In this document: positions 8,229 to 31,296 of the stretch, piece after piece
Numbering within the stretch: the first letter of the stretch is position 1
Layout of the letters: each line of letters begins with the position of its first letter
IMG/VR virus record: IMGVR_UViG_2758568661_000004
Origin: a virus
Lineage: Duplodnaviria > Heunggongvirae > Uroviricota > Caudoviricetes
Length of the DNA stretch: 33,827 nt
Reading direction: 5' to 3' (one strand)
Position numbers and translations under genes: made by a program
The notes under the pieces: model-generated
Databases searched by the model: none
Told to the model about the DNA's origin: nothing
Seen by the model: the letters and a program-made list of their open reading frames with translations, nothing else

Positions 8229-8238
8229 CATGCGGCGA
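8229..8238 (-). promoter_or_regulatory. Class II motif TCGCCGCATG
   Basis: TCGCCGCATG-CCTTCCAG upstream of 7543..8163. Confidence 0.6.
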
Positions 8239-8247
8239 AACTGCGCC

Positions 8248-8835
8248 TCAGCGTGTTTCCATTTCCAGACGGGACAGGAGGACTGTCATGAAGACGTCAG
8301 CGTCAGCTCCCGGTTTGCAGTTCAGGTCGGCGAACACAGCGACGGACGGGACGGTGAAGATTCGGGCGGCGGTGGACCATTTCGACCCGTCGGTGTCGGA
8401 ACCGGACACCTGCCGGAACTGCGCGTCGGGTGCTACAGCGACGTCTTTAGCGATCGCGGACACTTTGTCCTGGGATGCCCCGAACAGGTGGGCGAGGTAC
8501 CGGTCGCTGGCTCCTCGGTCGTCACCGTCCAACGTCACATCGTCTGGGACAGCCCCGGTGTGGACGGTGGCGTCACACAGCCCGTCTGGGGTGCGGTATT
8601 CCCTCTGGCCGACTGTCGCGTCAGCGAGCGTCCACCCGTCCTCGTCTGACAGGGTGTCTGTCAACGTTGGTGAGGCTTTAGCTGGTATGTCCGCTGCCTT
8701 CTCGAACGACAGGTCAACCGGCTGCTCCGCTGGTGCGGTTTTCACCACCTGGCCGGGAAGCTGGAATGACACGCAACCGGTCAAGCTGATGGCGACGACA
8801 GTGGCAGCCACAATGGCGACGGTGATGCGGGTCAA
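8248..8835 (-). CDS. Putative lipoprotein
   Basis: TTG start with RBS GGAAGG; lipobox ISLTG|C. Confidence 0.75.
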   Translation of the reverse strand: MTRITVAIVAATVVAISLTGCVSFQLPGQVVKTAPAEQPVDLSFEKAADIPAKASPTLTDTLSDEDGWTLADATVGQREYRTPDGLCDATVHTGAVPDDVTLDGDDRGASDRYLAHLFGASQDKVSAIAKDVAVAPDAQFRQVSGSDTDGSKWSTAARIFTVPSVAVFADLNCKPGADADVFMTVLLSRLEMETR

Positions 8836-8887
8836 GAACTCAGCCTTCCGACGGTCATCCCGAACCTCTCCGGGGTCATCAGGAAGT

Positions 8888-8916
8888 CATGCGGCAACAC
8901 CGGTGACCTGCGCATG
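8888..8916. promoter_or_regulatory. Back-to-back divergent motif pair: class II (-, 8888-8898) and class I (+, 8907-8916)
   Basis: catgcggcaac-accggtga-cctgcgcatg; each arm is followed by 8 nt and then ATG (8879 on -, 8925 on +). Confidence 0.75.
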
Positions 8917-8924
8917 TGTTTTGC

Positions 8925-9263
8925 ATGGAATCTTCTGCATCGGCCGGTACGTATCACCTGCACGCTGAGCAGGACGATGCCGTTGCGTATTGGAGCCAGG
9001 AGGCTGTGGCCAGTGAGAAGGCGTTCCGGAAGGCCCGATGGTCGTTCATCCCGGTGATGATGTTGGCAGCCGTGGTTGTTGGCACGGCGGCGCCGTCCAT
9101 GTTTCGTATGGGTGGCACCGCGGTGGCCGTGTTCGTTGCCGCTGAGGTGATTCTCGTTACCGGGTTCGTTACCGCTGAGGTGTTCCGGTTCCGCCGGCGG
9201 TCAGCGTGGAAGCGCCGAACCGCCTTGGCTGTGGAGTACCTGAGACGCGCTTACGCGCTGTAA
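8925..9263 (+). CDS. Small membrane protein (2 TM), probably leaderless
   Basis: ATG at 8925 is 8 nt after CCTGCGCATG; two hydrophobic segments and a basic tail. Confidence 0.7.
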   Translation: MESSASAGTYHLHAEQDDAVAYWSQEAVASEKAFRKARWSFIPVMMLAAVVVGTAAPSMFRMGGTAVAVFVAAEVILVTGFVTAEVFRFRRRSAWKRRTALAVEYLRRAYAL

Positions 9264-9304
9264 GGAAGACCGAGGATCGTGGAGGCGGCTGCCCGCGACA
9301 GCTT

Positions 9305-9655
9305 TCAGGCGCGGCCGAGTAGGACGTCGTACCGGTTCTGAGCTTCGAAGAAGGCGGTGACCGCGTTCCGGGAGCGGCGAGCGGCCTTGGTGTCACGCAC
9401 AGTCTGGATGATCGACAGGATCAGGAACACAGAGCCGATGAGGGTGAAGAGGCGTAGCCAGTCCATCCCGTTGATGTTGGCGGTCAGGGACAACCCGAAA
9501 CTGATGATCCCGAGGAAGGACCACCGCACCGTCGCAATGATGCTCCGATGAGGCATCGCGTTACGGGCAGCGTCCATCTCCTCGCGGGCGAGGAAAAGTT
9601 CCCGTTCCGCGGCGAGGATAGCGTCCCCCTCAGCCAGCTGTGACGATGCGCTCAA
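9305..9655 (-). CDS. Small membrane protein (2 TM)
   Basis: TTG start with RBS GGAAGGGA; two hydrophobic segments. Confidence 0.7.
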   Translation of the reverse strand: MSASSQLAEGDAILAAERELFLAREEMDAARNAMPHRSIIATVRWSFLGIISFGLSLTANINGMDWLRLFTLIGSVFLILSIIQTVRDTKAARRSRNAVTAFFEAQNRYDVLLGRA

Positions 9656-9688
9656 CAGGTTCCCTTCCTGAGTCGATGGTATCTGTGC

Positions 9689-10186
9689 TTAAGCGACGAC
9701 GCGCATGACGTCGTAGATGTCGATGTCCCGCTCCTGCAACCGTTCACGGACGAGGAGTGCAAGCCTTCTGTTGTTCAGGAACAGGTCCGTCCACTGGGTG
9801 CGGACAGCGTCAACATCGTCGCTTCCGATCAGGGTGTCGAACTCATCGGCCTTCTCGCTGATCGCCGACTCGTTGGTCTCGTCGACAGTCTCGTTGTGAA
9901 CGTCCATCGCCCGGTTCCACACCCGGATGCAGGTGGGGCAGGCAACACCGATCGGGGTGGGCATCGGCTCGGTGGATGTGCTCCCGACGTGCCGGCCGCA
10001 CAGTGATACCGGCTGGAAGAAGCCGAAAGCGATGTGGCGGGTGAACGCGCCGGCAGCCCAGACGGGGCTGGTGAGGCCGTCGGCGAGCTTCTTCGCGATG
10101 AGGGAGTCGGCGTCCCTTCGGACCGTCCCCATCTTCCACAGTGGGGCGATACGCCGTCCGGGTCTGATGTTCGCGTTCGAGGTCAT
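9689..10186 (-). CDS. Hypothetical protein with H...C...CxxC putative zinc-binding motif, probably leaderless
   Basis: ATG at 10186 (MTSNANIRPG) is 8 nt after the class I motif; RHIAFG...SLCG...ACPTC. Confidence 0.7.
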   Translation of the reverse strand: MTSNANIRPGRRIAPLWKMGTVRRDADSLIAKKLADGLTSPVWAAGAFTRHIAFGFFQPVSLCGRHVGSTSTEPMPTPIGVACPTCIRVWNRAMDVHNETVDETNESAISEKADEFDTLIGSDDVDAVRTQWTDLFLNNRRLALLVRERLQERDIDIYDVMRVVA

Positions 10187-10194
10187 GACTGTTC

Positions 10195-10205
10195 CATGCG
10201 CAGGA
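10195..10205 (-). promoter_or_regulatory. Class I motif TCCTGCGCATG
   Basis: TCCTGCGCATG-GAACAGTC-ATG(10186). Confidence 0.8.
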
Positions 10206-10217
10206 CTGGTGCGTAGC

Positions 10218-10736
10218 TCACCGGGGTGCCACTGCACCGTCTGGGATGGTGGGCGCGGATCCGGGCCAGTCACCGAGCTTGCCGAAAGTCGCACCGTCTA
10301 TGGCCGGGTCGAGGTAGATGACGAGCGGGTCTGTGTCCTCGCGTGGTTTGATCCAGCCGCCATCAGCGAGGGCGTCAGCGATGTTGAATGTGTCCCCGGC
10401 ACCGGCCACGACGGTGAGGATTACCCCTTGGTCTGGTTCGGTTCCATCAACAGACCAGGCCAAGCGGATGAGGTAGTCCGCGAACATGGTCGGGTCTGCA
10501 ATCTTGTATCCGTCCTCGAGGAATGCGGTGACGGCGATGTCATGACCGTCTCCCATGTCCTCCACGGTGACGGAGGTGTGCACAAGACCGTCAACATGGG
10601 CGAGGCTGTCAGCAGCTGCTGAGGCGGTCAACGGTTCCGGTGCGGGCGCGGGCGCGCAGGACGTCAACAGCAGGACCGCGCCGATGGCGGCTGCGGCCAG
10701 AGCGCGACGGTAGGTGCGTGGTTCCACACCGTCCAC
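10218..10736 (-). CDS. Putative lipoprotein
   Basis: RRALAAAAIGAVLLLTS|C lipobox and a Pro-rich linker; exact start uncertain. Confidence 0.7.
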   Translation of the reverse strand: MDGVEPRTYRRALAAAAIGAVLLLTSCAPAPAPEPLTASAAADSLAHVDGLVHTSVTVEDMGDGHDIAVTAFLEDGYKIADPTMFADYLIRLAWSVDGTEPDQGVILTVVAGAGDTFNIADALADGGWIKPREDTDPLVIYLDPAIDGATFGKLGDWPGSAPTIPDGAVAPR

Positions 10737-10760
10737 TGTCGGGTGTTCCGTGCCTTACCG

Positions 10761-11264
10761 TCAGGCGGCAGCCGCTTCGTCCGTCACATCCACCCATTCG
10801 ACCTCGTCGAGGTCTTGGGTGTCGATGATGTATTCGTCTTCGTTTCGGCCGGTGATCCTGGCGAGGACGAACTCGCGGGCGACGGTGAGTTTGTACACAC
10901 GCCCGGTCTTGTCGCCGGGGAGGATGCCGGTGAACCTGTTCGCGAACCAGCGGGCTGTGTTGATGTCACCGGTCCATGCCATGCCATCACGGCGGTCAGG
11001 GATCGCTCCCCGGTACACAGTCACCCAGTCCGGGAGGGTTTCACGGTCGGCTGGTTTCCCGTCGATGACGTAGTCGGCACGGTCGAACATCGCCATCCAC
11101 ACACCCTGGGTCAGCAACCGTTCCGGGTACTCCGCACCGGACCATGCTTCGCAGACCGCGTCTGCAAGCTCCACAGCAGTGAGCTTCTCGAAGTTGTACG
11201 CCAACGCTTCCGGCAGGTCGTTCCGACCGAGACGGCTGGCGAGTTCATTCCATGTTGTGACCAT
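10761..11264 (-). CDS. Hypothetical protein with ADP-ribosyltransferase-fold-like motifs
   Basis: VYRG...GMAWT..INTARWFA...NEDEYII; RBS AGGAGG. Confidence 0.55.
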   Translation of the reverse strand: MVTTWNELASRLGRNDLPEALAYNFEKLTAVELADAVCEAWSGAEYPERLLTQGVWMAMFDRADYVIDGKPADRETLPDWVTVYRGAIPDRRDGMAWTGDINTARWFANRFTGILPGDKTGRVYKLTVAREFVLARITGRNEDEYIIDTQDLDEVEWVDVTDEAAAA

Positions 11265-11289
11265 TCAGGACACCTCCTGCCCGGGACAC

Positions 11290-11299
11290 TATGCGGTCC
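11290..11299 (-). promoter_or_regulatory. Degenerate class II motif GGACCGCATA
   Basis: GGACCGCATA-GTGTCCCG, then RBS AGGAGG and the ATG at 11264. Confidence 0.4.
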
Positions 11300-11331
11300 A
11301 CGGAGGGTGTGGAGATTTTCCCGGGTCGGGC

Positions 11332-11783: not shown

Positions 11784-11832
11784 GTCACTCCTCGTGTCAG
11801 TCAGGGGGATTCCCTGATTCTTTCACCACTGT

Positions 11833-11843: not shown

Positions 11844-11858
11844 TGGCTGGGATCCCGG

Positions 11859-12188
11859 TCAGGCTTCGATGGGACGCCAGTTCAACGCTGCAGTCTTCGC
11901 CACCTTGACGGCTGTTGCCTGCGCCTCAGGTGCGGCCACATCCCAGTCCCCGTGGATGGTGTGCGCGAGCTCGACCACCCGGTGTGGAGGGACGTCTTCC
12001 GGTGATGCTGTCGCTGGCCCCCACCCGGCATCGGCGACCTTCTGGGCGGTCGCCCGGTACGCCTCTGCGTAATGACGTGGGAGCTTGTCGAACGGTGCAT
12101 CCCCGCCGACAAGGTTCACGTGGTTGTAGAGGAGTTCGGCGAGGCCTTCGACAGCTTCGGGTGTGGCGGCGTTCATGCCCGAAGTCAT
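11859..12188 (-). CDS. Hypothetical protein (109 aa)
   Basis: ATGA-coupled to the upstream gene; two similar helical halves (LAELLYNH / VVELAHTIH). Confidence 0.65.
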   Translation of the reverse strand: MTSGMNAATPEAVEGLAELLYNHVNLVGGDAPFDKLPRHYAEAYRATAQKVADAGWGPATASPEDVPPHRVVELAHTIHGDWDVAAPEAQATAVKVAKTAALNWRPIEA

Positions 12189-12625
12189 GCGGCGGACAGC
12201 TCGGCAGGCTGCCCTTCCGCCGGGCGGAGGGACTGGGCGAGGTACCCCATTCGGTGCTGGAAGAAGTCGTACACTTCCACAGCGAACCGGGACTGCTCCA
12301 TGTACAGGTAGCGGGCGTTCTCGTTCTCAACGTCCGTCCACGGAGCAAGGTGTTCGGTGAGCGCCGCAACCATGTACGTGTCGAACCAGTCGGCTGCAAG
12401 TTCGTCAACGAAATCAGCAAGCCTGTCATCGTGGGCGGATGCCCCGGCGTCGATGATCGCGCGGACCCGCTCCCCCGCATCCGGTTCGCCAGTCACAGCG
12501 TTGATCTGGTCGAGCTTCTGTTCCGCCGCGGCCAGCCGGGCGCGCAGGCGTGGAATGTCGAACTCGTCCGGGTCTGCGGTGGTCAGCTTTGAGATTTCGG
12601 TGGCTGCCACGATCAAGGACCCCAT
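12185..12625 (-). CDS. Hypothetical protein (~146 aa)
   Basis: Tightly packed in the minus-strand operon; start overlaps the upstream stop; start could be the GTG at 12610. Confidence 0.65.
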   Translation of the reverse strand: MGSLIVAATEISKLTTADPDEFDIPRLRARLAAAEQKLDQINAVTGEPDAGERVRAIIDAGASAHDDRLADFVDELAADWFDTYMVAALTEHLAPWTDVENENARYLYMEQSRFAVEVYDFFQHRMGYLAQSLRPAEGQPAELSAA

Positions 12626-14558: not shown

Positions 14559-14587
14559 GATTCTCCGGGGTCAGTGTCCCTGTAAGA

Positions 14588-14597
14588 CATGCGGCAG
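14588..14597 (-). promoter_or_regulatory. Class II motif CTGCCGCATG
   Basis: CTGCCGCATG-TCTTACAG, then RBS GGAG and the ATG at 14558. Confidence 0.6.
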
Positions 14598-14603
14598 ACA
14601 GTC

Positions 14604-15458: not shown

Positions 15459-18400
15459 TCAGGCTGCCGCGGCGGGCTGCTGCAAGCGTTCCTCCGCCTG
15501 CTGGTTGATGGCGGCTTCGACACGGGCGAGGTCAAGCTCGGCAGCCAACAGCTCATCCTCATGCTCGAACCCGGCGGACTCCGCTGTCGCTTCGAACGTG
15601 ACGGCCTCCTCGGAAAGACGGTCAGCTTTCGCCAAGCTCTCCGGGATGGTCTTCGCCGCGTTGACAATCCATTCGTCCACCAACGCGATGAAACGAGCGA
15701 CCAACGTTTCCGACTTCATCCGCATGTCGTTCCCGTTCAACGGGAACGAGTACACAGACCGGTAGTGCTTGCCCAGGGTGATGGTCGGCGGCTTCTGCCC
15801 GTCCCAGTTGCGGTCGATGCGCAGATCCAGTCCGCGCCACTGACCCGACGACCAGGAGTGCCCGGCCTTGATCCCGTCGATGAACGCCTCCAATGTGGCG
15901 GCGTCATCCATCGTTCCCGTTTCAGTCACGGACTCGAGGGCTTCGGTCATCTTCTCCGCGGAATGCCGCAGCTCAGATGCGCGGCGGCGGGACTCCTCAG
16001 CCTCACGGCGCAGACGGTTCGCACCCTGCCCGAACACAGCACGCATCGTCCGGAGACGGCGCACCTCCGAACCGAGCTCAGCCTGACGGAGCAGGTCGGG
16101 GTTTCCGGCAGCCAAAGCCTTCACCTCGGCGTAGTTCAGGACAGCCTCGGACACATCCTCGATCTCACGGATAGTCCCAGATGAGACGTACATCTGAGAG
16201 ATGAAACGCTGCTTACGTTCGAGGTGCTGCCAGATGAAACTCTGGAAGCTTCCCTCGGTGAGGTACCGGTAGATACCAACCGCAGTGTTCAGGTTCCCGG
16301 GACGGAGTGCCCGGCCTTCACGCTGCTCAATGTCGGACGGGCGCCACGGGGCATCCAAATGGTGCAGAGCAACAAGGCGGGTCTGGATGTTCGTGCCGAC
16401 ACCCACCTTCTCAGTGGAGCCGATGAGGACAGAAACAGCACCTTCGCGGGCAAGCGCGAACAGGTGATCACGTGCCTTGTCGGTGGACGCTTCATGGATG
16501 AACCGGATCTTCTCAGCCGGGACACCCAACTTCACCAGATGAGCGCGAAGCCGGCCGTACGTCTGCGGGTCGCCCGGGTGAGGGGTGCCGATGTCGCACA
16601 GCACCAGCTGAAGGGCGCCCGGGGTGGTTGATGAACCATAGATGCGGTCAGCGTTCTCGAAATGGATGCGTGCGATGCTCTTCGCGGCCGCCGACACCGC
16701 CGGGCTCACCTCGTTGATCCCCACCAGTGCAGGGTCCAACGACACCTTCCGGCCGTCGTTGCACACCATCAACATGTTGTCCTCAACACCGTTGACCGTC
16801 TGCTTCTGGCTGTTCCGGATGTCATCGGCACGCTGCGCGAGGGTGCGGACGAACGCCGCCTGCTGCTCGGACTGCTGGACAACAACGTTCTCCCAGGTGC
16901 CGTCCGGGCGTTCCAGCCCGATCTCATCAGCGGTCAGCAGGTCAGCGGACTCCGCCAGCATCAGACGCAGCTCGGGGACGTTCTGCATCGCGGCAGGGCG
17001 GCGGTACAGACGGAACCCGGAACCGTCCGGGGTGACCTCCACCTTCGACTCGTACCGGACGAACGTGGCCGCCCAGGAGTCGAACTGGTCCACACCCGCC
17101 TCAACGAGACGGTTCGGCTGCAGGTAACGCTGCCACACGAACGTCTCAGCGAGAGTGTTCGACCATGGGGTGCCGGTGAACAACCCGACGATGGGCTTCC
17201 CGGGGTAACGGGCTGCCAGCGTGTCAATCTTCAACAGCAGGTCGGTGGCGCGCTTCGACGAGCCGAGGGAGAACCCCTCCGCGCGGGTGTTGATCTGCAA
17301 ACGGCGGTAGTTGTGGGCTTCATCCACCATCAGGTAGTCCACACCCAGCTGCTCGAACATGACCTGGTTCGGGTCGCGGACACCGTCACGGAGCGCAGCG
17401 ATCTTCTGCTCCAGCTTGCGGACGGCGGCGGCGACCTTCTTCGCTCCGGTGCGCCCTGACGTGGTGTTCATCAGATGCCACCTGTACTCGGACTTCTGCT
17501 GCTCCAACCAGTCCTGCTCAGTGTCCGGGTTCACACCAATGGAGGTGAATGCCTGCTGGGTTATGATCACTGCATCCCAGTCACCGGTGGCGCAACGAGC
17601 GGCGAACAGACGGCGGGCGTCCTTCGTCAGGTCATCACGGGTGGCGATGAGGAACTTACCGGTCGGGTACGCCTGCTGTGCTTCACGAGCCATCTGCTCC
17701 AGCAGGTGGTTCGGGACCACAACCAACGGCTTCCGCGCCAACCCCATCCGACGCAGGGTGAGCGCACCGGTGATCATCGACTTCGACTTGCCGGAACCGA
17801 CCGGGTGTCCGATGAGGACACGGTCGTCGGAGATGAGACGGTCGACAGCGTCACGCTGCCACGACCACAGGTTGATCTTCTCGTCCAAACCGGGGAATGT
17901 CAGGTAGGAGCCGTCGCCGCGGCGGACAACATGGGAGTTGAACCGGCGGTTGTACTCAGCGCACAGCCGTGCGGAGCGCAGGTCGTCCTCCCATACCCAG
18001 ATGGCGAAACGCTCCTGGATGGTGCGCAGAGCCTCCTCAGCGGCCAGGGTTTCCACCTGGTTGCGGATCTTCACGGTGCGCCCGTCACGCCAGAACTCGT
18101 CGAACACGACCGGGGCTTTGCCGTTCAGGCCGCATGAGAGCAGCTGGATGGGGGTGAACTTGCTGGTGCCGTACGTCAACGCGGTGGCAGGGTTCGACGA
18201 GTACGAGTCCGCCTCCCATGCGCTGACCGCGGGGATGAACGTGACCGTGGAGGAGTGCTTGAACACATCCCGGACGAACTGCTCCATGTCGGTGTCCGAA
18301 ATCCATGTGGCACCCAGCTGGGCGCGGATCTCCAACGGGCCAAGGTCAGCCGGCATCACCTGGTCGAGGGCGTGCACGTTCCGCCAGAAGCCGTCATCGA

Positions 18401-20171
18401 GCTGCGCGGCGGCGTTCGCTTCGGCAAGCTTCACCCGGATGTTCCCGGACAGGTAATCGCGGGCGGTGACCGTCACACGGGTGGCGGGGTCGGTGAACAC
18501 CAGATCGCCCAGCTGGGTGATGGCATCCTCCGACGTCACACCGAGCAGTTCAGCGACCCGGGCAACATCAACACGGCCGCACTCCCCCAGCGTGATCGCC
18601 AGAGCCTCCTCAGCGCTGCCGGCGCTGGTGGCGCGGGGCGGGTGAGCGCCGACACGACGCAGCAGAATCGGTGCGGGCTTAGCCTCACCGGAATCCTGGG
18701 AGAACTGCTCCAACGCCATCACAGCGACATAGTCAGGGTCCTTACGGAACCCACCCATCGTCGGACGGCGCCACGTCCATGCAGCCTCACCGGTCTCCGG
18801 GTCAGCCTTACCTTCGACAAGCGTTCCACGGTTCAACGGGCCGTACTTCTTCACGTACCCCTCGTAGAGGGCGAGCGCGGCAGCGCGAGCCGGTGCGATC
18901 TCGGAGTCGGGTCGTTCCGGGTGTGATTCCAGGTCGATGAGTTCGACAGCGGCGTCACGGAGTGGGATGAGGGAGCGGAGCTCTGCGTTGTTCCGGGCTT
19001 CGACGAGGCGTCCACCCTGCACCTGCATGATGGTGGTGCCGACCAGATGGTAGGAGCCTTCCTTGTGCCCGAGTTCATCCTCGAGGACGACGTCGTCGAA
19101 GTTGTCAACGACTGTGGTGGCGGACGGGATGATGAGCTGCGCGGCGGCTGCGGTGGCGCGACGGATGTCGGAGACCTTCGCGGATGATTCCACCTTCAGC
19201 GGAACGCGGCTGTACCCGGAAGCGATCGGGGTTCCTGCGATGCAGTCGGTGTGGTCGGCGAAGTACCCGGAGATGTCTACATGGTGGTCGCCGGTTACGA
19301 CTCGGTGCTTGCGGACGGTGGCGGTCTTCCGGCCACGCCCGTACCAGCTGTCGTCGGTGACCCAGTCGACGGTTGGAACCCAGCCGATGCCGTGGTCACC
19401 GGTCATCGGCTTCCGGAACGCGAGGATGTCGGCGACCACGCCGGTGCCTTCGAAGCTGTCGTTGGGGAGGCGGATGGCGGCGATCAGGTCGCCCTTCTCC
19501 GAGATGGCGGTCAGGCCACGGTCGCCGTCGAGGATGTGGCGGCTGGTGACGATGACGACGTACCCGCCGGGCTTGACAGCGTCGAGGGCGCGGAGGATAA
19601 AGTACTCATGCAGGGAGTGGTAGTTCTGGAACTCGGGGTCGTACACGGTGGTTTCTGAGAACGGGACGTTCCCGACGACCGCGTCGAAACCGCCGGTCTT
19701 GAATGCGACCTTCTCGAGCGGCTTGTTGAGGATCTGAGCACCCGGGTGGAGGGCGCGAGCGAAACGGGCGGCGGTCGGGTCGATCTCCACACCGGTCCAC
19801 TGGATGTCCATGTCGGCGGGTGCCAAGGACATGAAGTTGCCGGAGCCGCAGCCGGGTTCGAGGATGCGGCCGCCGGTGAAACCGGCAGCACGGAGGAGGG
19901 TGAACACGGATTCGGCGACAGCCCAGCCGGTGTAGAAGCTGGTGTCGATGACGTCACGGGCGACGTTCAGGTCAGCTTCGGGGATGAGTCCGGTGAGACG
20001 GTCAGCGATTCCAGCCCATCCGCCTTCCGGCTGCGCTGCGAATGCGGGGGTCAGCGGACCCCATCCGGGCCAGGTGGCGAGGGTGGCGCGCTGCTCCTCG
20101 GTGGGTTCTCCGATGATGGAGGTGAGGGTGGTCAGCGCGTCCAGCGCGCGGTTGGCGATCTGCATGCTCAT
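15459..20171 (-). CDS. N6-adenine DNA methyltransferase / SNF2-type (SF2) helicase fusion (P1 DarB-like architecture)
   Basis: MTase motif I LEPGCGSGNF and motif IV GNVPF; helicase GHPVGSGKS, VDEAH, TGTP, QREGRALRPGN; 1570 aa. Confidence 0.88.
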   Translation of the reverse strand: MSMQIANRALDALTTLTSIIGEPTEEQRATLATWPGWGPLTPAFAAQPEGGWAGIADRLTGLIPEADLNVARDVIDTSFYTGWAVAESVFTLLRAAGFTGGRILEPGCGSGNFMSLAPADMDIQWTGVEIDPTAARFARALHPGAQILNKPLEKVAFKTGGFDAVVGNVPFSETTVYDPEFQNYHSLHEYFILRALDAVKPGGYVVIVTSRHILDGDRGLTAISEKGDLIAAIRLPNDSFEGTGVVADILAFRKPMTGDHGIGWVPTVDWVTDDSWYGRGRKTATVRKHRVVTGDHHVDISGYFADHTDCIAGTPIASGYSRVPLKVESSAKVSDIRRATAAAAQLIIPSATTVVDNFDDVVLEDELGHKEGSYHLVGTTIMQVQGGRLVEARNNAELRSLIPLRDAAVELIDLESHPERPDSEIAPARAAALALYEGYVKKYGPLNRGTLVEGKADPETGEAAWTWRRPTMGGFRKDPDYVAVMALEQFSQDSGEAKPAPILLRRVGAHPPRATSAGSAEEALAITLGECGRVDVARVAELLGVTSEDAITQLGDLVFTDPATRVTVTARDYLSGNIRVKLAEANAAAQLDDGFWRNVHALDQVMPADLGPLEIRAQLGATWISDTDMEQFVRDVFKHSSTVTFIPAVSAWEADSYSSNPATALTYGTSKFTPIQLLSCGLNGKAPVVFDEFWRDGRTVKIRNQVETLAAEEALRTIQERFAIWVWEDDLRSARLCAEYNRRFNSHVVRRGDGSYLTFPGLDEKINLWSWQRDAVDRLISDDRVLIGHPVGSGKSKSMITGALTLRRMGLARKPLVVVPNHLLEQMAREAQQAYPTGKFLIATRDDLTKDARRLFAARCATGDWDAVIITQQAFTSIGVNPDTEQDWLEQQKSEYRWHLMNTTSGRTGAKKVAAAVRKLEQKIAALRDGVRDPNQVMFEQLGVDYLMVDEAHNYRRLQINTRAEGFSLGSSKRATDLLLKIDTLAARYPGKPIVGLFTGTPWSNTLAETFVWQRYLQPNRLVEAGVDQFDSWAATFVRYESKVEVTPDGSGFRLYRRPAAMQNVPELRLMLAESADLLTADEIGLERPDGTWENVVVQQSEQQAAFVRTLAQRADDIRNSQKQTVNGVEDNMLMVCNDGRKVSLDPALVGINEVSPAVSAAAKSIARIHFENADRIYGSSTTPGALQLVLCDIGTPHPGDPQTYGRLRAHLVKLGVPAEKIRFIHEASTDKARDHLFALAREGAVSVLIGSTEKVGVGTNIQTRLVALHHLDAPWRPSDIEQREGRALRPGNLNTAVGIYRYLTEGSFQSFIWQHLERKQRFISQMYVSSGTIREIEDVSEAVLNYAEVKALAAGNPDLLRQAELGSEVRRLRTMRAVFGQGANRLRREAEESRRRASELRHSAEKMTEALESVTETGTMDDAATLEAFIDGIKAGHSWSSGQWRGLDLRIDRNWDGQKPPTITLGKHYRSVYSFPLNGNDMRMKSETLVARFIALVDEWIVNAAKTIPESLAKADRLSEEAVTFEATAESAGFEHEDELLAAELDLARVEAAINQQAEERLQQPAAAA

Positions 20172-20309: not shown

Positions 20310-22130
20310 CTACAGTGCTGGCGCCTTGAACGTTGGCGTGATTGCGCCTTGGGAAGCGGGGTTGTATCCACCGATGGGGTTGCCTGCGGAGCCGACCGCG
20401 AACGTTTGTCCGGTGCCGTCCACCCAGAACGTTCCGTATTGATTGCCGCCGGATGAGATGACGTCGGCTGCACCGACCAGCTTCTGAGGCTTCAGCCTGT
20501 TGGTGTTAGACCCGTCTCCTAGCTGGTAGCTGCTGTTCGACCCCCACACCCACAGGTCGTGGTTCTCATCGATAGCTGTACCCGAGCTCACCCCGAGCGT
20601 GACGCTCACGAACTTGAGGCCGGCGGGAACGTTCGTCCTGTCCAGTGCCACCGGGGCGTTCCGGTTGGTAACGCTCCCGTCTCCGAGGATGCCGCTGCCG
20701 TTCGTGCCCCATGCCCAACCGCCGGTGGGTGTGATTGCGACCACTGCGGAGGTCTTCGAAGAGATGTCGATCACGCCGGACACGGGGGCGACCTTCGTCG
20801 GGTTCACGAACGTGCCGCTGCTGGAAGCCTGTCCCTGGGCGACGCCCCAGCCCCACGTCCACACTTCACCATCAGTGGTGAGCGCTGCACCCGTGGTTCC
20901 ACTGGCTGTGATCTTCACCCATGTCTTCCCCTGGGTGTTGAGTTCGGATGGGGTGAGGACCGGGGTGACGGAGCTGCCGTTTCCGAGCGCTCCGGTTGCT
21001 GCGTTCCCCCAACCCCACACCTTCCCGGCTGTGTCGAAAGCCCATGTTCGGTTGTCGCCGGCGAACACCTTGGTGAACTTCTGCCCGACGAGCACTTTCG
21101 TGGGTGTCTGCTTCGCTACGGTGTCACCTGTTCCGAGTTGTCCGTTGCTGTTCGCACCCCACGCCCAGAGTTGTCCGTCACCGTCAAGGGCGACGGTGTG
21201 GTCGAGTCCTGCGGCGACGGACGCGATTGTGACCCCGGCGGGGAATGTGAGAGCTGCTGCGGGACCGGTGGTCAGCGGTCCCCGGCCGAGAGCTCCGGCT
21301 GCCCCGGTGCCCCAGGTCCATACAGACCCGTTCCTGTCGAGTTCAACGCCGATACCTGTGGCTGAGGCGAACATGGGCATCCCGTACACCTTGATGGTGA
21401 CGTTCATGGTGGTGGTGCCTGTGGTGTTCGCGGCTGTGATTGTGAAATCGAACTTGCCAGCTGCGGTTGGGGTTCCGGTGACCGCCCCGGTGGTCGAGTT
21501 GATGGTGAACCATGAGGGCGCGCCGACGGCGGCGTATGTGATGGCTTTCGGGTAGCCGGTCGCTTTCACCGTGTTCGAGTATGAGACGCCAACGGTTCCG
21601 TCAGCCCACGTGACGGCGTTGAACTCCGGTGCTTTCGGTTCGGGCTGGCCCCTTAGGTCTTCTACGATTTTCGCCAGAGGGTCCAGGGTGGCGCACCAGC
21701 TGGTGCGGTCCACATCTTCTTGAGAGTCTTCGAACTTGTAGGTGGTCTTGGATTTGGCAGTGGTGTACCACGCGTCACCACTGCCGGACAAGGACGCTGC
21801 GATCCAGCAGGTTCCGGCTGTACCGTCAGTGAATACGGCGACTTTCGCTTTGGGTGGCGCTTCCGGGAGAAGCCCGAAGCTGATGAGTCCGGCGTAGTCG
21901 GTGTACTTCCCGGGGCCGGCGGGCGGTGCGAGGAGCCGTCCTGCTGTTTCAGCGTCGTGGATGGCTGCAAGATCCTGTTTCGCGGCTTCGTTCTGTGTCC
22001 ATGGGATGACCGCGAACACGGTGGTGCTGAGCGCTCCTGCGATGACTCCGATGATGATGACGCCGACCATGATGGATACGAGGTCGATGGCTGCGCGTGA
22101 GTTTCTGAGCAGGTGGAGCAGGCGGTACAA
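20310..22130 (-). CDS. Pilin-like N-terminus + putative Ig domain + RCC1-repeat protein
   Basis: NSRAAIDLVSIMVGVIIIGVIAG...VIPWTQNEAAKQDL pilin-like helix; Ig-like TGAVTGTPTAAGKFDFTITA; repeated WGxNxxGQLG; TTG start with RBS AAAGG. Confidence 0.8.
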   Translation of the reverse strand: MYRLLHLLRNSRAAIDLVSIMVGVIIIGVIAGALSTTVFAVIPWTQNEAAKQDLAAIHDAETAGRLLAPPAGPGKYTDYAGLISFGLLPEAPPKAKVAVFTDGTAGTCWIAASLSGSGDAWYTTAKSKTTYKFEDSQEDVDRTSWCATLDPLAKIVEDLRGQPEPKAPEFNAVTWADGTVGVSYSNTVKATGYPKAITYAAVGAPSWFTINSTTGAVTGTPTAAGKFDFTITAANTTGTTTMNVTIKVYGMPMFASATGIGVELDRNGSVWTWGTGAAGALGRGPLTTGPAAALTFPAGVTIASVAAGLDHTVALDGDGQLWAWGANSNGQLGTGDTVAKQTPTKVLVGQKFTKVFAGDNRTWAFDTAGKVWGWGNAATGALGNGSSVTPVLTPSELNTQGKTWVKITASGTTGAALTTDGEVWTWGWGVAQGQASSSGTFVNPTKVAPVSGVIDISSKTSAVVAITPTGGWAWGTNGSGILGDGSVTNRNAPVALDRTNVPAGLKFVSVTLGVSSGTAIDENHDLWVWGSNSSYQLGDGSNTNRLKPQKLVGAADVISSGGNQYGTFWVDGTGQTFAVGSAGNPIGGYNPASQGAITPTFKAPAL

Positions 22131-22169
22131 GGGTGATGCCTTTCAGGTGGTTCTCGGCTTACGTACAGG

Positions 22170-22179
22170 TATGCGGCGA
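22170..22179 (-). promoter_or_regulatory. Class II motif TCGCCGCATA
   Basis: TCGCCGCATA-CCTGTACG upstream of the TTG at 22130. Confidence 0.55.
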
Positions 22180-22198
22180 AAATCCTGATGAAAATGCA

Positions 22199-22254: not shown

Positions 22255-22602
22255 TTAGCGGGACGGGATCCAATCCGTCAGCGGGTCGCCGGACTCACCG
22301 CAGGTGCGGAGGACAAGGCCGGTGTCGGTCGGTGAAGCTGCGACGATTGCGCGTGCGGCGTCCTCATCCTCGGCCGGCTCGTAAGCCTGCTCCGTGGAGG
22401 ACACTTCGTACACGGTGCCCCACTGGATGAAGGTGACCTCACCGGTGAGGAGGTCAGCGACATCCAGCCATCCTTCCGAGGTGCGAACCTCGGGGACTTC
22501 CCGCTCGACGGTGCGGTGGTACGTGAGGGCGTACAGGGTGCGGTCGATGCGGGCGTTCGCAGCTGCGAGAGCGTATTCAAGTTCGGCGATGCGGTCGGAC
22601 AT
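22255..22602 (-). CDS. Hypothetical protein (115 aa)
   Basis: RBS AAAGGA; class I motif upstream; terminator downstream. Confidence 0.75.
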   Translation of the reverse strand: MSDRIAELEYALAAANARIDRTLYALTYHRTVEREVPEVRTSEGWLDVADLLTGEVTFIQWGTVYEVSSTEQAYEPAEDEDAARAIVAASPTDTGLVLRTCGESGDPLTDWIPSR

Positions 22603-22653: not shown

Positions 22654-22681
22654 CATGCGCAGGATGTGACCCTGCCGCATG
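22654..22681. promoter_or_regulatory. Back-to-back divergent motif pair: class I (-, 22654-22664) and class II (+, 22672-22681)
   Basis: catgcgcagga-tgtgacc-ctgccgcatg between the divergent genes 22602(-) and 22692(+). Confidence 0.75.
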
Positions 22682-22691
22682 TCTACCCGGT

Positions 22692-25391: not shown

Positions 25392-27500
25392 TTAGGCGGC
25401 TGCGACCTTGCGGCGGCGGACCATGAGGGCTGCACCGCCGAGGAGCATCAGAGCGGCAACACCGAAGTACGGCGCACCCTCGAAGCCGAGGCCGGGGATG
25501 ACAGCGGTGCTGTCACCGGCTGCGGCGACTGTGATCTCGGAGATGAGGTACTCGACACCGTTCTCATCCACGAAGTACAGGTGGTGCGTGCCGGCGGGGG
25601 TGTTCAGGGGAATCTTCACACTGGCCACGACCTTGCCGTTGGAGTCAGCAGTGAACGAACCGAGGGTGACCGGGTTGGAACGCAGGACAACGGTGACGTC
25701 CGAATCGGGCGAGAAGCCGCTTCCGCTGACGGTGATCGTTGTGCCGGCGACCACGGTCCCGTTGTTCGTCCCTCCGGGCTGGTCGACGACCACGTTGCTC
25801 GGCTTCACAATCCCTTCGAAGTCCTTCGACACGGAACCCTCGTCGTTGAACGCGGTGACAGTGACCTCGTACTTGCCGTCATACTCCGGCGTCCCGGACA
25901 GGAGGCCGGACTTGCTCAGGGTGATGCCGGCGGGCAGGTAGCCGGAGCTGACCTCCCACTTGACGTCCTGGTCTGCGGTCAGCTGGTACGAGTACACGGC
26001 ACCCTGCGTCATCTCGGGGAGCGTCGCGGAGGTGATCGTCGGGTTGTTCTCGCCGACAACGTAACGCTGGACGGTGCCGATGTAGTGCTGCTCGTCGGTG
26101 TCCTCGGTGCGGTTCTGCGAACCGACGATCGCGAAGTCGTAGTAGCCGTCGTAAGCCTCGTCACCGTACTCAACGGTTCCGGACAGTGTTGCCGTGTCGC
26201 GGTTGAAGGTCAGGCCTGCGGGCAGGGTGCCGTCCGCGTCCCAGAAGTCCACGTTGGTGCCGGTGAACTTGTGGTTGATCTTCTGTCCGACCACCAGGTT
26301 GCCGAGGTTGTACTCGTCGACGACCGGGAGGCCAGCCTTGACGTTGATCTGGAATCCGTTGAACGGCGAGTCCTCACCGAACTGGTAGCGGGAGTTCGCG
26401 GCGGACACCTTGAAGTTGAAGGTTCCAGCCTCCGTGGGGGTGCCGCTGACGACGCCCATGCCGCCGTCGGAGGTGAACTCCAGACCGTCAGGCAGGTCGC
26501 CCGACTCCTGAAGCTCGTCAGCGTTGTTGGTGACGATGTAGGAGGAGAACTCCTCGCCGACACGGGCGGTGCCGTGGAACTCCTCCTGAGCGCCAGCGAA
26601 GTTCGGCAGACCACGCAGTGCCTCACCGTAGAACGTCTGGGTGTAGTCCTCACCGTCGACCGTGGCGATCAGGGTGATGCCCCAGCCGCCGTACGTGTCG
26701 AAGACACCGTCGAGGTAGAAGTCGCCGTCCTCGTTGACGATGGACAGACCATACGTGTTCGAGTCCTCGTCGAAGCGGATGGCAGTCGCACCGGGAACGT
26801 CGAGCTGCTGGTGGACCTGCAGGTCCTGCTCCCAACCTTCGAGGTCCTCCTGCGTGGTCACCCACGGGCTGTCCACGACGACGTCGTTGATGTGAAGGTT
26901 GAAGACCTGGTCTGCCGTGGAGTCATCCGAACCGACGGCCGTCACGGTGAACGTGAAGTCGCCCGACTCGGTGGGGGTGCCGGAGATGTGGTCTGCCTCA
27001 ACGACGAGTCCAGCCGGGACGCCCTCGCCAACCGTGTAGGACACGGCGTTCGGGACGTTGAAGCCGACGTAGTACTCGGAGCCGACGGTGCCATCAGCGA
27101 GGGTGTCGGTGTTCCACACGGGGGTGATGTCGGCAGCGAGGAGGGCGCCGGTGAACGTCTGCGTGGCGGTGACATCCGAAGAGCTGACGGCGTTCACGCC
27201 GAAGGAGTACTCGCCGGGGGTGCCGGTGACGTAACCGGTGAGGAGGCCGTCGCTGCTCACATCCAGACCGAGCTCCTCGGCGGCAGCATCCGCTGCGTTG
27301 AACGATACGGCGTCGTCGGCTTCCAGCTGGCGGCTGACCTCGTCACCGATTGTCAGGTCGCCGAGCAGGTCAGGCTCTGAAACCCAGACCGGGGTGAGCG
27401 GGCCAGCCATCGCGGGCGATGCCGCGAAAGCTGTGGCGGCGATGACAGCCGCGGTGACGAGCGACGCGCTGACGCGCCTGCCCAAGTTGGTGGTACTCAT
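25392..27500 (-). CDS. Putative Ig-repeat cell-surface protein with sortase-like C-terminal signal (IPGLG)
   Basis: Signal peptide MSTTNLGRR...PAMA; Ig-like repeats; VIPGLG + TM + RRRK; RBS AAAGGA; paralog of the downstream gene. Confidence 0.85.
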   Translation of the reverse strand: MSTTNLGRRVSASLVTAAVIAATAFAASPAMAGPLTPVWVSEPDLLGDLTIGDEVSRQLEADDAVSFNAADAAAEELGLDVSSDGLLTGYVTGTPGEYSFGVNAVSSSDVTATQTFTGALLAADITPVWNTDTLADGTVGSEYYVGFNVPNAVSYTVGEGVPAGLVVEADHISGTPTESGDFTFTVTAVGSDDSTADQVFNLHINDVVVDSPWVTTQEDLEGWEQDLQVHQQLDVPGATAIRFDEDSNTYGLSIVNEDGDFYLDGVFDTYGGWGITLIATVDGEDYTQTFYGEALRGLPNFAGAQEEFHGTARVGEEFSSYIVTNNADELQESGDLPDGLEFTSDGGMGVVSGTPTEAGTFNFKVSAANSRYQFGEDSPFNGFQINVKAGLPVVDEYNLGNLVVGQKINHKFTGTNVDFWDADGTLPAGLTFNRDTATLSGTVEYGDEAYDGYYDFAIVGSQNRTEDTDEQHYIGTVQRYVVGENNPTITSATLPEMTQGAVYSYQLTADQDVKWEVSSGYLPAGITLSKSGLLSGTPEYDGKYEVTVTAFNDEGSVSKDFEGIVKPSNVVVDQPGGTNNGTVVAGTTITVSGSGFSPDSDVTVVLRSNPVTLGSFTADSNGKVVASVKIPLNTPAGTHHLYFVDENGVEYLISEITVAAAGDSTAVIPGLGFEGAPYFGVAALMLLGGAALMVRRRKVAAA

Positions 27501-27624
27501 ACTGAAGGGTGGTCCTTTCGAAGATGAGCCGGCTGCGTATTGCATCCGGATAGTGCGTCTTTGCGGCGTTGTCGCCATCAACTACATGCGCGGCAGCACG
27601 CAATGCGTGGCTCTGCATTTTTCC

Positions 27625-27635
27625 CATGCGCAGGA
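27625..27635 (-). promoter_or_regulatory. Class I motif TCCTGCGCATG
   Basis: TCCTGCGCATG-GGAAAAAT-G... upstream of 25392..27500. Confidence 0.75.
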
Positions 27636-27748: not shown

Positions 27749-27762
27749 CCTCACTGGGGGCT

Positions 27763-29430: not shown

Positions 29431-29438
29431 GCCTGCTC

Positions 29439-29449
29439 CATGCGCAGGA
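29439..29449 (-). promoter_or_regulatory. Class I motif TCCTGCGCATG
   Basis: TCCTGCGCATG-GAGCAGGC-ATG(29430); directly abuts the stop codon of the J-domain gene. Confidence 0.8.
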
Positions 29450-30499
29450 TCACGCTTCGGCGGACGCTTTCTCCTTCTTCGCTGCCCGGTCGGCGTCGTT
29501 CTGCATGCGGCGTTGCGCTTGCTCCCACAGTTGGTAGGTGCTCTTCGGTGATACGGAGTTCACCTGGCCGTCGAATCCGAGGGTCACCCATTGGCCGACA
29601 ACCAGGTTGGGTGCGGTGATGAGGCCGGCCTGGCTGGTCCGCCAATGTTCGATGATCGCTTCCCGGCCGTCGGTTTCGGACACTTGGAACGGTCCATGCC
29701 CGAAGGTGGAACCACGCCAGATCAGCTGCTCCCACAACGACGCACCGTTGTACATGTTCCGCAGCTGGAACCATGCGTTCGCGGAAAACGCAGCCAAGTA
29801 CCAGAGGATGCAGGAGAGCAGCGGGATCCACGCCCATGCCCGGGTCATCCCCCACCATTCGAAAGCCAACCCGGTGAGGGACATGAGCACGGTCATGCCC
29901 ATGTAGAGCTGTCCGGCACCGGCGAGGAACTTCGTGCCGAACCATCGTGCGCGACCGCTGAACAAGGTGATGGAGAGTCCCGCGAGGATGGTGCCAGTTG
30001 CGGTTGATGCTGCAGACCAGACCGGGTACGCCGATTCCGGGTTGATCAGCCACACCAGGCCGGAGATCATGAACCCGATGGTGGGTGCGAGGAACGCGCA
30101 GATCCCCGTCAGCCACAGCAGCTCCCCTGACCCTTTCGGGAACAGGGTCTGTCGGAGGTTCCGGGTGGGTGGTTCCGGGAATTTCACCGGTTCAGGTGCT
30201 GGCGTCCACGGACCGGAGGTGGTGTTGCCGGTTGCGGTTGCCCCGCCGGCGGTTCTTGCCTGCTGCGGTTCAGGTGCCGGTTCCCGCAACGACTGGTCGT
30301 ACTCTTCGCGGGTGACCGGGTCGAGGAGGATGTCCTGCGCTTCGTTCAACCGTTTCGTCATCGCTTCGCCAGCAGCACCAGTGCCGCGGTCAGGATGGTG
30401 CACCCTCACAAGCTTCAGGTACGCCTTCTTGATCTCCTGCTCGGAGGCGCTCGGCTGGACACCCAGCAGGGTGTAATGGGTGGCAGTTTTGGTTGGCAT
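29450..30499 (-). CDS. J-domain (DnaJ-like) membrane protein
   Basis: HYTLLGVQPSASEQEIKKAYLKLVRVHHPDR (HPD motif), Pro/Thr linker, then about 4 hydrophobic segments. Confidence 0.85.
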   Translation of the reverse strand: MPTKTATHYTLLGVQPSASEQEIKKAYLKLVRVHHPDRGTGAAGEAMTKRLNEAQDILLDPVTREEYDQSLREPAPEPQQARTAGGATATGNTTSGPWTPAPEPVKFPEPPTRNLRQTLFPKGSGELLWLTGICAFLAPTIGFMISGLVWLINPESAYPVWSAASTATGTILAGLSITLFSGRARWFGTKFLAGAGQLYMGMTVLMSLTGLAFEWWGMTRAWAWIPLLSCILWYLAAFSANAWFQLRNMYNGASLWEQLIWRGSTFGHGPFQVSETDGREAIIEHWRTSQAGLITAPNLVVGQWVTLGFDGQVNSVSPKSTYQLWEQAQRRMQNDADRAAKKEKASAEA

Positions 30500-30548
30500 C
30501 GTGTCCCGACGTTAGCGGCTCAACGGTGAGCTTGGAGAAACCTCGCCG

Positions 30549-31190
30549 TCAGGCAGCGACCGATTTCACAGTTACTTTCGCGGTGACGGAAACAGTCACC
30601 TTGTCCGGGGTGTGAAGGGTTCGGTTCAGCTTGGTTGCCGGGGTGTCTTCCACTCCGTCCGGTCGGTTCACTTCCACACCGGCGAGTTCCACGGACACCT
30701 CTTCAACGGACACAGGAACCCGGTTGACGGATGCCCCGTCCAAGGAGCTGTCGTACGCTGCGGAGTTTCGAGCAGCTGCGGGGATGATGTGCTGGCGGGC
30801 GATGCTGATCGCGTTCTCGCGGCCGGCGTCGGACAGCTCCCAGGTCAGCTGCCAGTCGGTGAGGGTGACATCCGTCGCGGTGAGCAGGCCGGTCCCTTCC
30901 AGCCAATGCCACACCTGCGACGGCTGGTTCCCGGCGATGAGAGCTTCCACTGTGGCGGACACCCGACCGTTCTTCGGGGACAGGTCAGGGGCGGAGAGGC
31001 TGAACCCGCGGATGACATCCGGTTCCTCCGCACCGTGATGGCTGAGGGAGTCGAACAGGCCGGCGAGCTCAGCGTTCACCTCATCGGCTGATGCGCGGCC
31101 ATCGAACACGAAGGTGAGCTTCACGGTGCAGGCGTCCGAGTCAACGGTGGTGGTGGCGGTGGAGAGGGTGGTGACGGTGAGGTCGGACAT
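30549..31190 (-). CDS. Hypothetical protein, possibly SIMPL/DUF541 (BP26)-like
   Basis: Start MSDLTV with RBS AAGGA; pattern of an N-terminal strand, WELSD..RENAI..A..AAAR..AAY and a terminal TVSVTAKV strand recalls DUF541; no signal peptide. Confidence 0.5.
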   Translation of the reverse strand: MSDLTVTTLSTATTTVDSDACTVKLTFVFDGRASADEVNAELAGLFDSLSHHGAEEPDVIRGFSLSAPDLSPKNGRVSATVEALIAGNQPSQVWHWLEGTGLLTATDVTLTDWQLTWELSDAGRENAISIARQHIIPAAARNSAAYDSSLDGASVNRVPVSVEEVSVELAGVEVNRPDGVEDTPATKLNRTLHTPDKVTVSVTAKVTVKSVAA

Positions 31191-31238
31191 GCGGATAGGG
31201 TCCTTGCGGTTCGCGGGTTGATGGGCGGACCGGGAAGA

Positions 31239-31296
31239 CATGCGGCGAACTAAGAACCCGCGCCATCAGCTCACAAAGGGCGTGTTCCTGCGCATG
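31239..31296. promoter_or_regulatory. Divergent motif pair: class II (-, 31239-31248) and class I (+, 31286-31296)
   Basis: Minus strand TCGCCGCATG-TCTTCCCG; plus strand TCCTGCGCATG-TACAGGAC-ATG(31305). Confidence 0.75.

Follow-up and report, generated by a model that had tools for sequence, protein, structure and literature searches.

A second promoter-like motif class with a CGCAT core on a family of giant Microbacteriaceae plasmids

The 33,827-nucleotide (nt) stretch of DNA filed as IMGVR_UViG_2758568661_000004, referred to at its full length as the window, carries in its gene gaps two kinds of short motif built around CGCATG, termed class I (CCTGCGCATG) and class II (mostly GCCGCATG). As judged from its sequence, class II is genuine: a promoter-like class that is conserved separately from class I and has a geometry and a gene set of its own. 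We describe its sites and their non-random placement, the discreteness of the two classes, their class-specific spacing, the conservation of class at orthologous genes, the restriction to the plasmid and a separate set of sigma-28 promoters. The original prediction had read the sites as a second, related promoter specificity, perhaps with a paralogous sigma factor or a temporal class of its own, and loosely resembling the -10 element of FliA/WhiG promoters; a separate promoter-like class is indeed what we find, but neither the paralogous sigma factor nor the FliA/WhiG link held up.

The explanation we favour, at a probability of about 0.58, is that class II is a -35-independent promoter read by a function which the plasmid specifies and which would be related to the reader of class I, because the core is common to both, yet distinct from it. 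The sites would form the core of a second compact -35-independent promoter class that is private to the giant Microbacteriaceae plasmid family. Transcription would most likely start at a purine 10–11 nt after the last G of GCCGCATG, and thus 1–2 nt farther from the CGCATG core than in class I, for which the predicted start lies 9 nt after the core. Class II would head a gene set of its own, comprising the gene for a FliA/WhiG-like sigma factor and many genes for secreted proteins, lipoproteins, peptidases and secretion ATPases, and three tiers may be distinguished, with class I serving the bulk of the genes, class II standing beside it and classical sigma-28 promoters serving the late flagellar genes. 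The class II reader would differ from that of class I in specificity or in binding register and would be neither the housekeeping sigma factor of the host nor the FliA-like sigma factor.

Class II sites and their separation from class I

We assign the window to a giant Microbacteriaceae plasmid. Two Logan contigs from a single run cover it and were joined with it into a 76-kb replicon piece, and the comparison set consisted of 454 kb of Agromyces contigs carrying the motif system and the entire Curtobacterium plasmid pS16, giving three lineages in all. Neither megablast nor blastn returned close DNA relatives of the window among phages or plasmids, and its relatives are found at the protein level only. 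Agromyces humi ANK073 is the closest of them (63 % identity), and a contig of this strain is syntenic with the window replicon over the sigma gene, the flagellar cluster and on as far as genes 7543-8835. Curtobacterium pS16 and pCPAA3 carry relatives of a 1570-amino-acid methylase-helicase of the window at ~49 % identity, and a Frondihabitans plasmid is also related.

With the class II pattern RCCGCATR-N7-G, 12 matches were found in the window where 1.44 were expected, and the shorter RCCGCATR gave 15 where 4.6 were expected; none of 100 shuffles reached either count. The intergenic share of the window, about 9 %, holds seven of the 15 RCCGCATR matches, and all seven are co-oriented with the next gene. 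Seven to eight class II sites stand in gaps or junctions, counting the one at 12186 that overlaps a stop codon. The sites, their target genes and the neighbouring class I motifs are listed below; the gene starts agree with the independent calls supplied with the Logan contigs, and scores in bits refer to a class II matrix trained on Agromyces sites only, for which random sequence gave a mean maximum of 11.8 bits and a highest value of 20.8 bits in 30 trials.

8221-8239 (-): class II site ttc-GCCGCATG-ccttcca-G, 65 nt upstream of gene 7543-8163; 22.8 bits as class II and -9.3 bits as class I
7543-8163 (-): target gene, 206-amino-acid protein with a signal peptide and no Pfam family
8880-8898 (-): class II site gtt-GCCGCATG-acttcct-G, 52 nt upstream of gene 8248-8835; 20.5 bits
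8248-8835 (-): target gene, 195-amino-acid lipoprotein with an LTGC lipobox
8907-8916 (+): class I motif CCTGCGCATG, 8 nt before the ATG of open reading frame 8925-9263 and 17 nt from the class II core at 8888
11282-11297 (-): doubtful 'degenerate' site ACCGCATA-gtgtccc-G before gene 10761-11264, outside the top 22 hits of the class II matrix
12178-12196 (-): added class II site tcc-GCCGCATG-acttcgg-G, overlapping the stop codon of gene 12185-12625 and 9 nt before ATG 12176 of gene 11859-12176
14580-14598 (-): class II site tct-GCCGCATG-tcttaca-G, 29 nt upstream of the subtilase gene; 21.3 bits
13077-14558 (-): target gene, secreted S8 subtilase of 493 amino acids with a signal peptide (Peptidase_S8, E = 2.5e-27)
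22162-22180 (-): class II site ttc-GCCGCATA-cctgtac-G, 39 nt upstream of gene 20310-22130; 16.0 bits
22199-22231 (-): terminator-like hairpin of 14 pairs with a T tail, whose end lies 22 nt upstream of the 22170 class II site
20310-22130 (-): target gene, 606 amino acids, with an N-terminal hydrophobic anchor and He_PIG and RCC1 repeats
22654-22663 (-): class I motif CCTGCGCATG before gene 22255-22602, the divergent partner of the next site
22671-22689 (+): class II site cct-GCCGCATG-tctaccc-G, 10 nt upstream of ATG 22692, which lacks a Shine-Dalgarno sequence (leaderless geometry); 25.0 bits
22692-23327 (+): target gene, HAD-family hydrolase of 211 amino acids
31231-31249 (-): class II site ttc-GCCGCATG-tcttccc-G, 48 nt upstream of ATG 31190, the start of gene 30549-31190; 25.1 bits
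30549-31190 (-): target gene, 213 amino acids, with no family and no signal peptide
31287-31296 (+): class I motif, 8 nt upstream of the start codon (ATG) of the DUF2637 gene 31305-32183

The seven sites listed originally as intergenic and co-oriented are borne out by the counts, the shuffles and the gene calls, with corrections to one coordinate and to one membership. The plus-strand site is real but starts at 22674 and not at 22672, and the 'degenerate' site at 11290, which the Agromyces-trained matrix misses and which has neither the YGC nor the TCY flank, is a doubtful member that should be dropped or marked as such. An additional site at 12178-12193(-), scoring 15.2 bits and absent from the first list, lies at the ATGA junction before gene 11859-12176. 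The spacers had been quoted correctly, with G at base 8 in 7/7 and CT at bases 2-3 in 6/7, and no class I site in the window has CT there. The G that follows the N7 spacer, invariant locally, is found in only 48 % of the Agromyces class II sites; it stands 2–3 nt upstream of the predicted start within a G-rich patch. The ATG contained in the motif was also considered as a start codon or minicistron and rejected, since its frame differs from that of the genes at 8229 and 14588.

The class II consensus reads ttCGCCGCATG-TCY-n-CC, followed by the G-rich patch and a pyrimidine-purine step, and comprises ~20 conserved positions. Set against class I in the window, it has CGCATG in common, GC instead of TG just upstream, a T-rich/C upstream flank and a pyrimidine-rich downstream block. 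Class I itself takes the form CCTGCGCATG in the window, CCGCGCATG in Agromyces and CCGCGCAYA in Curtobacterium pS16. The triplet preceding the core in class II is YGC and is never combined with the CC(T/C)G that class I has 5' of CGCATG. Among the 311 non-genic CGCATR cores of Agromyces this triplet is CCG in 169 and YGC in 66, with no other triplet exceeding five occurrences, and the flanks are coupled to it: the second base after the core is C in 63/66 class II sites vs 29/169 class I sites (p = 1.5e-30), and several more flank positions separate the two at p < 1e-5.

As for the window, the seven best hits of the Agromyces-trained matrix are the sites at 31239, 22676, 8229, 14588 and 8888 (20–25 bits), 22170 (16.0) and 12186 (15.2), after which the next hit drops to 9.7 bits. 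All seven score negative on the class I matrix, and on the class II matrix almost every class I site has a score that is negative or close to zero, the highest reaching 2.3 bits. When 7-mers were ranked without bias by their enrichment in the upstream regions of the 76-kb replicon piece, class I words came first and GCCGCAT, TGCCGCA and GCATGTC followed alongside Shine-Dalgarno-like words, with the sigma-28 word CCGATAG ranking lower. A collapse of both classes into one degenerate matrix is refuted because the matrices and the unbiased words keep them apart, and the bimodal triplets, the coupled flanks and the spacing peculiar to each class agree with this.

On pS16 we counted 147 sites of the form CCG-CGCAYA and 54 of the form YGC-CGCAYA, and when any last core base was allowed, class II was about as numerous as class I (142 vs 158). 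The last core base of class I changes from G elsewhere to almost always A on pS16, whereas class II has C (47), A (40) or G (20) after CGCAT there. Because of this variable base and a weak downstream block, class II is less sharply defined on pS16.

The two classes are often found back to back. The class II site at 8880-8898(-) stands in this way beside the class I site at 8907-8916(+), and the class II core at 22671-22689(+) lies 16 nt from the core of the class I site at 22654-22663(-). The three divergent junctions of the window (8888/8911, 22654/22676 and 31239/31291) each pair one class I with one class II site, with the cores 16–17 nt apart at two of them, and the pair of 31231-31249(-) and 31287-31296(+) recurs at the start of the Agromyces contig C208. 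The Agromyces back-to-back pairs comprise eight of the I/II kind, five I/I and one II/II, and mixed pairing is accordingly a tendency and no law. A CCGCGCATG motif, the Agromyces form of class I and not the window's own CCTGCGCATG, is present at 27585-27593 (-), 40 nt downstream of a regular class I site at 27625, with which it forms a tandem pair before gene 25392-27500.

Geometry, target genes and conservation of class

Upstream of the motif block neither class holds any information, which is seen in the 66 Agromyces class II sites and likewise in those of the window. The cores of back-to-back pairs are only 8–17 nt apart, and no room is left for a -35 element because the partner fills its place. 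Downstream, the spacing is class-specific. Agromyces class II sites have a pyrimidine at position 10 after the core in 89 % and a purine at position 11 in 94 %, while class I sites have a pyrimidine at position 8 and a purine at position 9, each in 94 %. The distances to start codons follow the same division: in Agromyces 16 start codons lie 10 nt after a class II core and none at 8 nt, as opposed to 39 at 8 nt and none at 10 nt for class I; on pS16 class II has 16 at 9 nt and 17 at 10 nt and class I has 59 at 8 nt; and on the window replicon class II has two at 9 nt and two at 10 nt, ATG 22692 included, and class I eight at 8 nt. Genes at these distances have no Shine-Dalgarno sequence, and their mRNAs, where they follow class II, are best explained as leaderless, starting at or next to the start codon. 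As genes of this kind stand 9–10 nt from the sole conserved element, the motif would take the place of a -10-region element. The strong terminator hairpin directly upstream of the site at 22170 fits a promoter as well.

Known promoter types do not account for the motif. For sigma-A, no T is enriched at the position equivalent to -7 and no TA at -12/-11, and TANNNT is lacking; for extracytoplasmic function (ECF) sigma factors, AAC-type -35 information is lacking and the partners 8–17 nt away occupy the -35 place. A consensus scan of the window from 7 to 24 kb returned no sigma-70-like promoter.

Selection appears to act on the identity of the class. Taking as orthologues the reciprocal best-hit pairs with one motif class on both sides, we found 7 I-I, 6 II-II and no discordant pairs between window and Agromyces (13/13 agree, p = 6e-4), and 11 I-I, 10 II-II and 4 discordant pairs between Agromyces and pS16 (21/25 agree, p = 1e-3); window and pS16 yielded four pairs only. 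The proteins are 29–76 % identical (37–65 % for the six class II pairs), and the aligned promoter regions show 58–75 % identity inside the motif block vs 25–47 % outside. The HAD gene has an orthologue at Agromyces C468 12159-12785 with a class II site at the identical 10-nt distance, the orthologue of gene 7543-8163 (C223 764-1348) is likewise preceded by ttcGCCGCATG, and that of gene 8248-8835 (C223 101-706) is also of class II. Between window and Agromyces class II is better conserved than class I, which differs by one base. As orthologues hold their class between genera, the two classes would mark functionally different gene sets.

As to what these sets contain, the original prediction had counted envelope proteins among the products of four of the seven class II targets. 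This count was confirmed, with a signal peptide, lipobox or N-terminal anchor in 4/7 (or 4/8) class II and 5/11 class I targets of the window; an envelope bias is not significant there but is significant in the two related plasmids. By a crude hydrophobicity proxy, 40 % of the class II genes and 16 % of the class I genes in Agromyces encode an N-terminal hydrophobic segment (p = 0.001), the corresponding shares on pS16 being 30 % and 7 % (p = 2e-4). Genes of class II kept across lineages encode a T2SSE secretion or pilus ATPase, an M23 peptidase, NERD and HNH proteins and a thioredoxin-reductase-like protein. The plasmid sigma gene has ttcGCCGCAT(G/A) 124–165 nt upstream in the window replicon, Agromyces and pS16. 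The leaderless share of genes is similar in both classes (~23–24 %).

The motif is judged to be restricted to the plasmid. Among 251 sampled Microbacteriaceae genomes, the class II word is in excess in Agromyces only (43 matches vs 3 in the control, all others at most 6), where it is found mainly on contigs that also carry class I. As the excess is limited in this way, the regulon of a host sigma factor is unlikely, and a host regulon was rejected as a candidate after the 250 other genomes showed no class II excess.

The putative reader of class II

The replicon continues just outside the window start with a complete flagellar cluster and one sigma gene (268 amino acids), followed farther out by plasmid-type genes, those for RNase H and DndB among them. 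The cluster (L044:6251-21008, L005 and L003:11805-21530) comprises fliC, fliD, fliS, flgB/C, fliE-J, fliK, flgD/E, motAB, fliMNOPQR, flhBA, csrA, fliW and flgLKN besides the sigma gene and is syntenic with Agromyces humi contig C223 and Curtobacterium pS16. The sigma factor is a divergent FliA/WhiG-like group-3 factor (FliA_WhiG 114.8 bits, below the cut-off of 189.6) that is 65 % identical to its Agromyces and 40 % to its pS16 counterpart, and its gene adjoins the flagellin gene in all three lineages. Sigma-28 promoters of the form CTAAC-N15/16-GCCGAYAG precede fliC, flgN, flgB, flbD/motA and fliM and are kept between the window replicon and Agromyces; they were located at L044:8210-8240, L044:11790-11830 and L003:13520-13550 and at the orthologous places on Agromyces C223. 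Their sequence marks these textbook promoters as a third promoter tier on the plasmid and as the natural predicted targets of the plasmid sigma factor.

A paralogous sigma factor for class II was not found; that class II genes form a temporal class is a possible reading. The complete pS16 and the Agromyces plasmid contigs each gave one Sigma70_r2 match and no further one, and pS16 carries a single sigma-70-family gene. A 184-amino-acid LuxR-type regulator, the second region-4 hit on pS16, was considered as the reader and rejected, as it has no match in the window replicon piece or in the fetched Agromyces contigs.

Several points weigh against a distinct class II reader. The sole sigma-70-family gene on the complete pS16 is the FliA-like one, which leaves the distinct factor without a candidate gene. 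The classes share CGCAT and always co-occur, and one factor with two binding modes, or one holoenzyme together with a regulator, would fit two classes equally well. Class II on pS16 has a variable base after CGCAT and a weak downstream block, and 4/25 orthologue pairs switch class. Within the window alone the envelope share is 50 % vs 45 %, which is not significant. The start-codon distances depend on gene calls by our own codon log-odds caller, which agree with those of the collection where both exist. Finally, promoter function, start position and the nature of the reader are inferred, promoter function from the geometry alone.

The strongest rival, which we consider unlikely but ahead of the others, has one plasmid-specific holoenzyme read both classes through CGCAT, with the classes differing in regulation and not in the recognition factor; the class II flanks (TTC upstream and TCY-n-CC-GG downstream) would then act as a discriminator, moving the start by 2 nt and adjusting strength, or as the overlapping operator of a separate regulator. 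The common core of 5–6 nt, the lack of a -35 element in either class, their co-occurrence in all three lineages, the similar leaderless share and the single sigma-type gene on pS16 are all in keeping with it, the frequent back-to-back I/II pairs suggest a single machinery, and a plasmid-specific 34-bp motif over the -10 element of pMP7017, read as a regulator site, offers a precedent (PMC10832533). Yet intermediates between the classes are almost absent, and upstream dinucleotide, downstream block and start spacing are strictly coupled. A core-to-start gap longer by 2 nt in three lineages would be unusual for a single recognition mode, and the block differs from typical dimeric operators in its asymmetry and in running on from the core without a break.

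Clearly less probable is that the divergent FliA/WhiG-like sigma factor reads class II in a -35-independent mode, activating itself and a regulon of surface proteins. GCCGCATG and GCCGATAG have GCCG and the final G in common, the factor is both divergent and the sole sigma on the plasmid, and its own gene is preceded by class II in all three lineages, self-activation being common among alternative sigma factors. The same replicons, however, carry sigma-28 promoters with CTAAC and a 15–16-nt spacer before five flagellar operons, whereas class II has no TAAA or CTAAC 15–16 nt upstream. Its -10 equivalent is GCCGCATG and not GCCGATAA with its CGATA core, while the flagellar promoters have GCCGAYAG or CCCGATAG, and its core lies 10 nt from the start. 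Class II heads genes for subtilase, lipoprotein, HAD hydrolase, M23 peptidase and T2SSE ATPase, with the sigma gene as the sole flagellar-related target. Region 4 of the sigma factor is intact, which implies the use of a -35 element. The likeness to the FliA -10 element noted originally is therefore probably coincidental, given the missing -35 element, CAT in place of ATA, the greater distance from the start, the mostly non-flagellar targets and the separate sigma-28 promoters.

That the sites are no promoters at all but an orientation-locked operator or 'stoperator' for a plasmid repressor, or a signal at the RNA level, is very improbable: short, asymmetric, orientation-locked junction motifs are known as repressor sites in Cluster A mycobacteriophages, but the fixed 9–10 nt to start codons without Shine-Dalgarno sequence, the pyrimidine-purine step at a fixed distance in ~90 % of the sites, the absence of any other promoter-like element nearby and the terminator directly upstream of one site speak against it, a motif upstream of the transcription start would lie outside the RNA, and no candidate repressor was found, the LuxR-type gene of pS16 being unmatched in the window replicon piece and the fetched Agromyces contigs.

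Beyond the favoured reading of a distinct, plasmid-specified reader, a bolder version can be put forward tentatively, namely a private multi-tier programme in which the two -35-less classes, both unlike any consensus promoter, are read by one or two plasmid-encoded specificity factors undetectable as sigma-70 and class II is the master tier. Class II would in that case switch on the plasmid sigma-28 factor and hence the plasmid-borne flagellum, plus a regulon for secretion and surface proteins.

Parallels, further features of the replicon and significance

Within the plasmid family, class I resembles class II in its CGCAT(G) core, the lack of a -35 element, the restriction to the plasmid, the orientation towards genes, the fixed distance to leaderless starts and the pyrimidine-purine step. 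Class II differs in having GC and not TG or CG 5' of the core, TTC upstream and TCY-n-CC downstream, in its 9–10 nt instead of 8 nt to start codons, in heading different genes that keep their class across genera and in its negative cross-matrix scores. Sigma-28 promoters (FliA/SigD/WhiG, TAAA-N15-GCCGATAA) have a -10 element that likewise begins with GCCG, and a gene for such a sigma factor lies on the replicon behind a class II site; class II differs from them in having no -35 element, CAT where sigma-28 promoters have ATA, and non-flagellar genes.

Phage T4 late promoters (TATAAATA, gp55) and extended -10 promoters need only an element in the -10 region. They resemble class II in being a compact block ~8–20 nt upstream of the start with no -35 element, and both mark the genes of a mobile element itself; class II is unrelated to them in its GC-rich sequence, has no TANNNT and belongs to a plasmid and not to a lytic phage, and neither a gp55-like nor any other dedicated factor was found for it. 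The stoperators of Cluster A mycobacteriophages, 13-bp asymmetric repressor sites, are similarly short, asymmetric, orientation-locked and repeated in the gene gaps of an actinobacterial mobile element, unlike class II, which keeps a fixed distance to leaderless starts, has the pyrimidine-purine step and occurs as one of two paired classes with different spacing.

Among published systems, the closest parallel found is a 34-bp motif specific to the Bifidobacterium breve megaplasmid pMP7017, where it overlaps the -10 element (PMC10832533). The Frondihabitans sucicola plasmid pNBRC108728a carries its own repeated CTGCTAYACTAAG extended -10 promoters, neither CGCATG class and no flhA; its motif (aa)CCTGCTAYACTAAG (L002) is a canonical extended -10 element 7 nt before start codons with a CCTGC prefix as in class I of the window. 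As in class II, both are motifs in the promoter regions of an actinobacterial megaplasmid that stand before many genes and are absent from the chromosome, but both contain a canonical -10 hexamer for the housekeeping sigma factor (TATACT or TAYACT), which class II does not. A literature search found no paper on the class I and class II motif words, the string matches being primers.

Some further features of the replicon and its relatives are worth recording. The window encodes at 15459-20171 (-) the 1570-amino-acid fusion of an N6-adenine methyltransferase with an SNF2/DEAD helicase, which is kept at 45–63 % identity in Curtobacterium, Agromyces, Mycobacterium and Rhodococcus, there too on large plasmids, and has a class I motif upstream in all three lineages examined, and at 275-1804 (-) a CCA-adding/poly(A) polymerase-type nucleotidyltransferase with an HD domain (509 amino acids, 62 % identity in Agromyces). 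On the Agromyces humi contigs, a contig end is found less than 300 nt away from 8/45 strict class II sites vs 1/196 class I sites (C368:10 and 17118, C223:51, C421:2405, C208:107, C75:95 and C152:5676). Promoter regions of ~90–140 nt repeat at the ends of different contigs, some with higher G+C, which points to repeated segments that carry promoters, or to alternative junctions, as the cause of breaks in the assembly.

For work on these plasmids, the two matrices enable the annotation of transcription units and leaderless start codons on poorly annotated replicons. Class II is the more informative of the two for finding the reader, with ~20 conserved positions that were kept between genera while class I drifted, and its place before the flagellar sigma gene offers a direct handle on the activation of the plasmid-borne flagellar system. 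In Agromyces, a genus described as non-motile, a flagellum encoded on a plasmid would be notable. If class I and class II are promoters, plasmids of 0.45–0.6 Mb mark several hundred genes in a way that the ordinary sigma factors of the host should be unable to read, and divide their genes into at least two conserved regulons. This would make the family a rare case of a non-phage mobile element with its own promoter code and would imply a new specificity factor for actinobacterial RNA polymerase.

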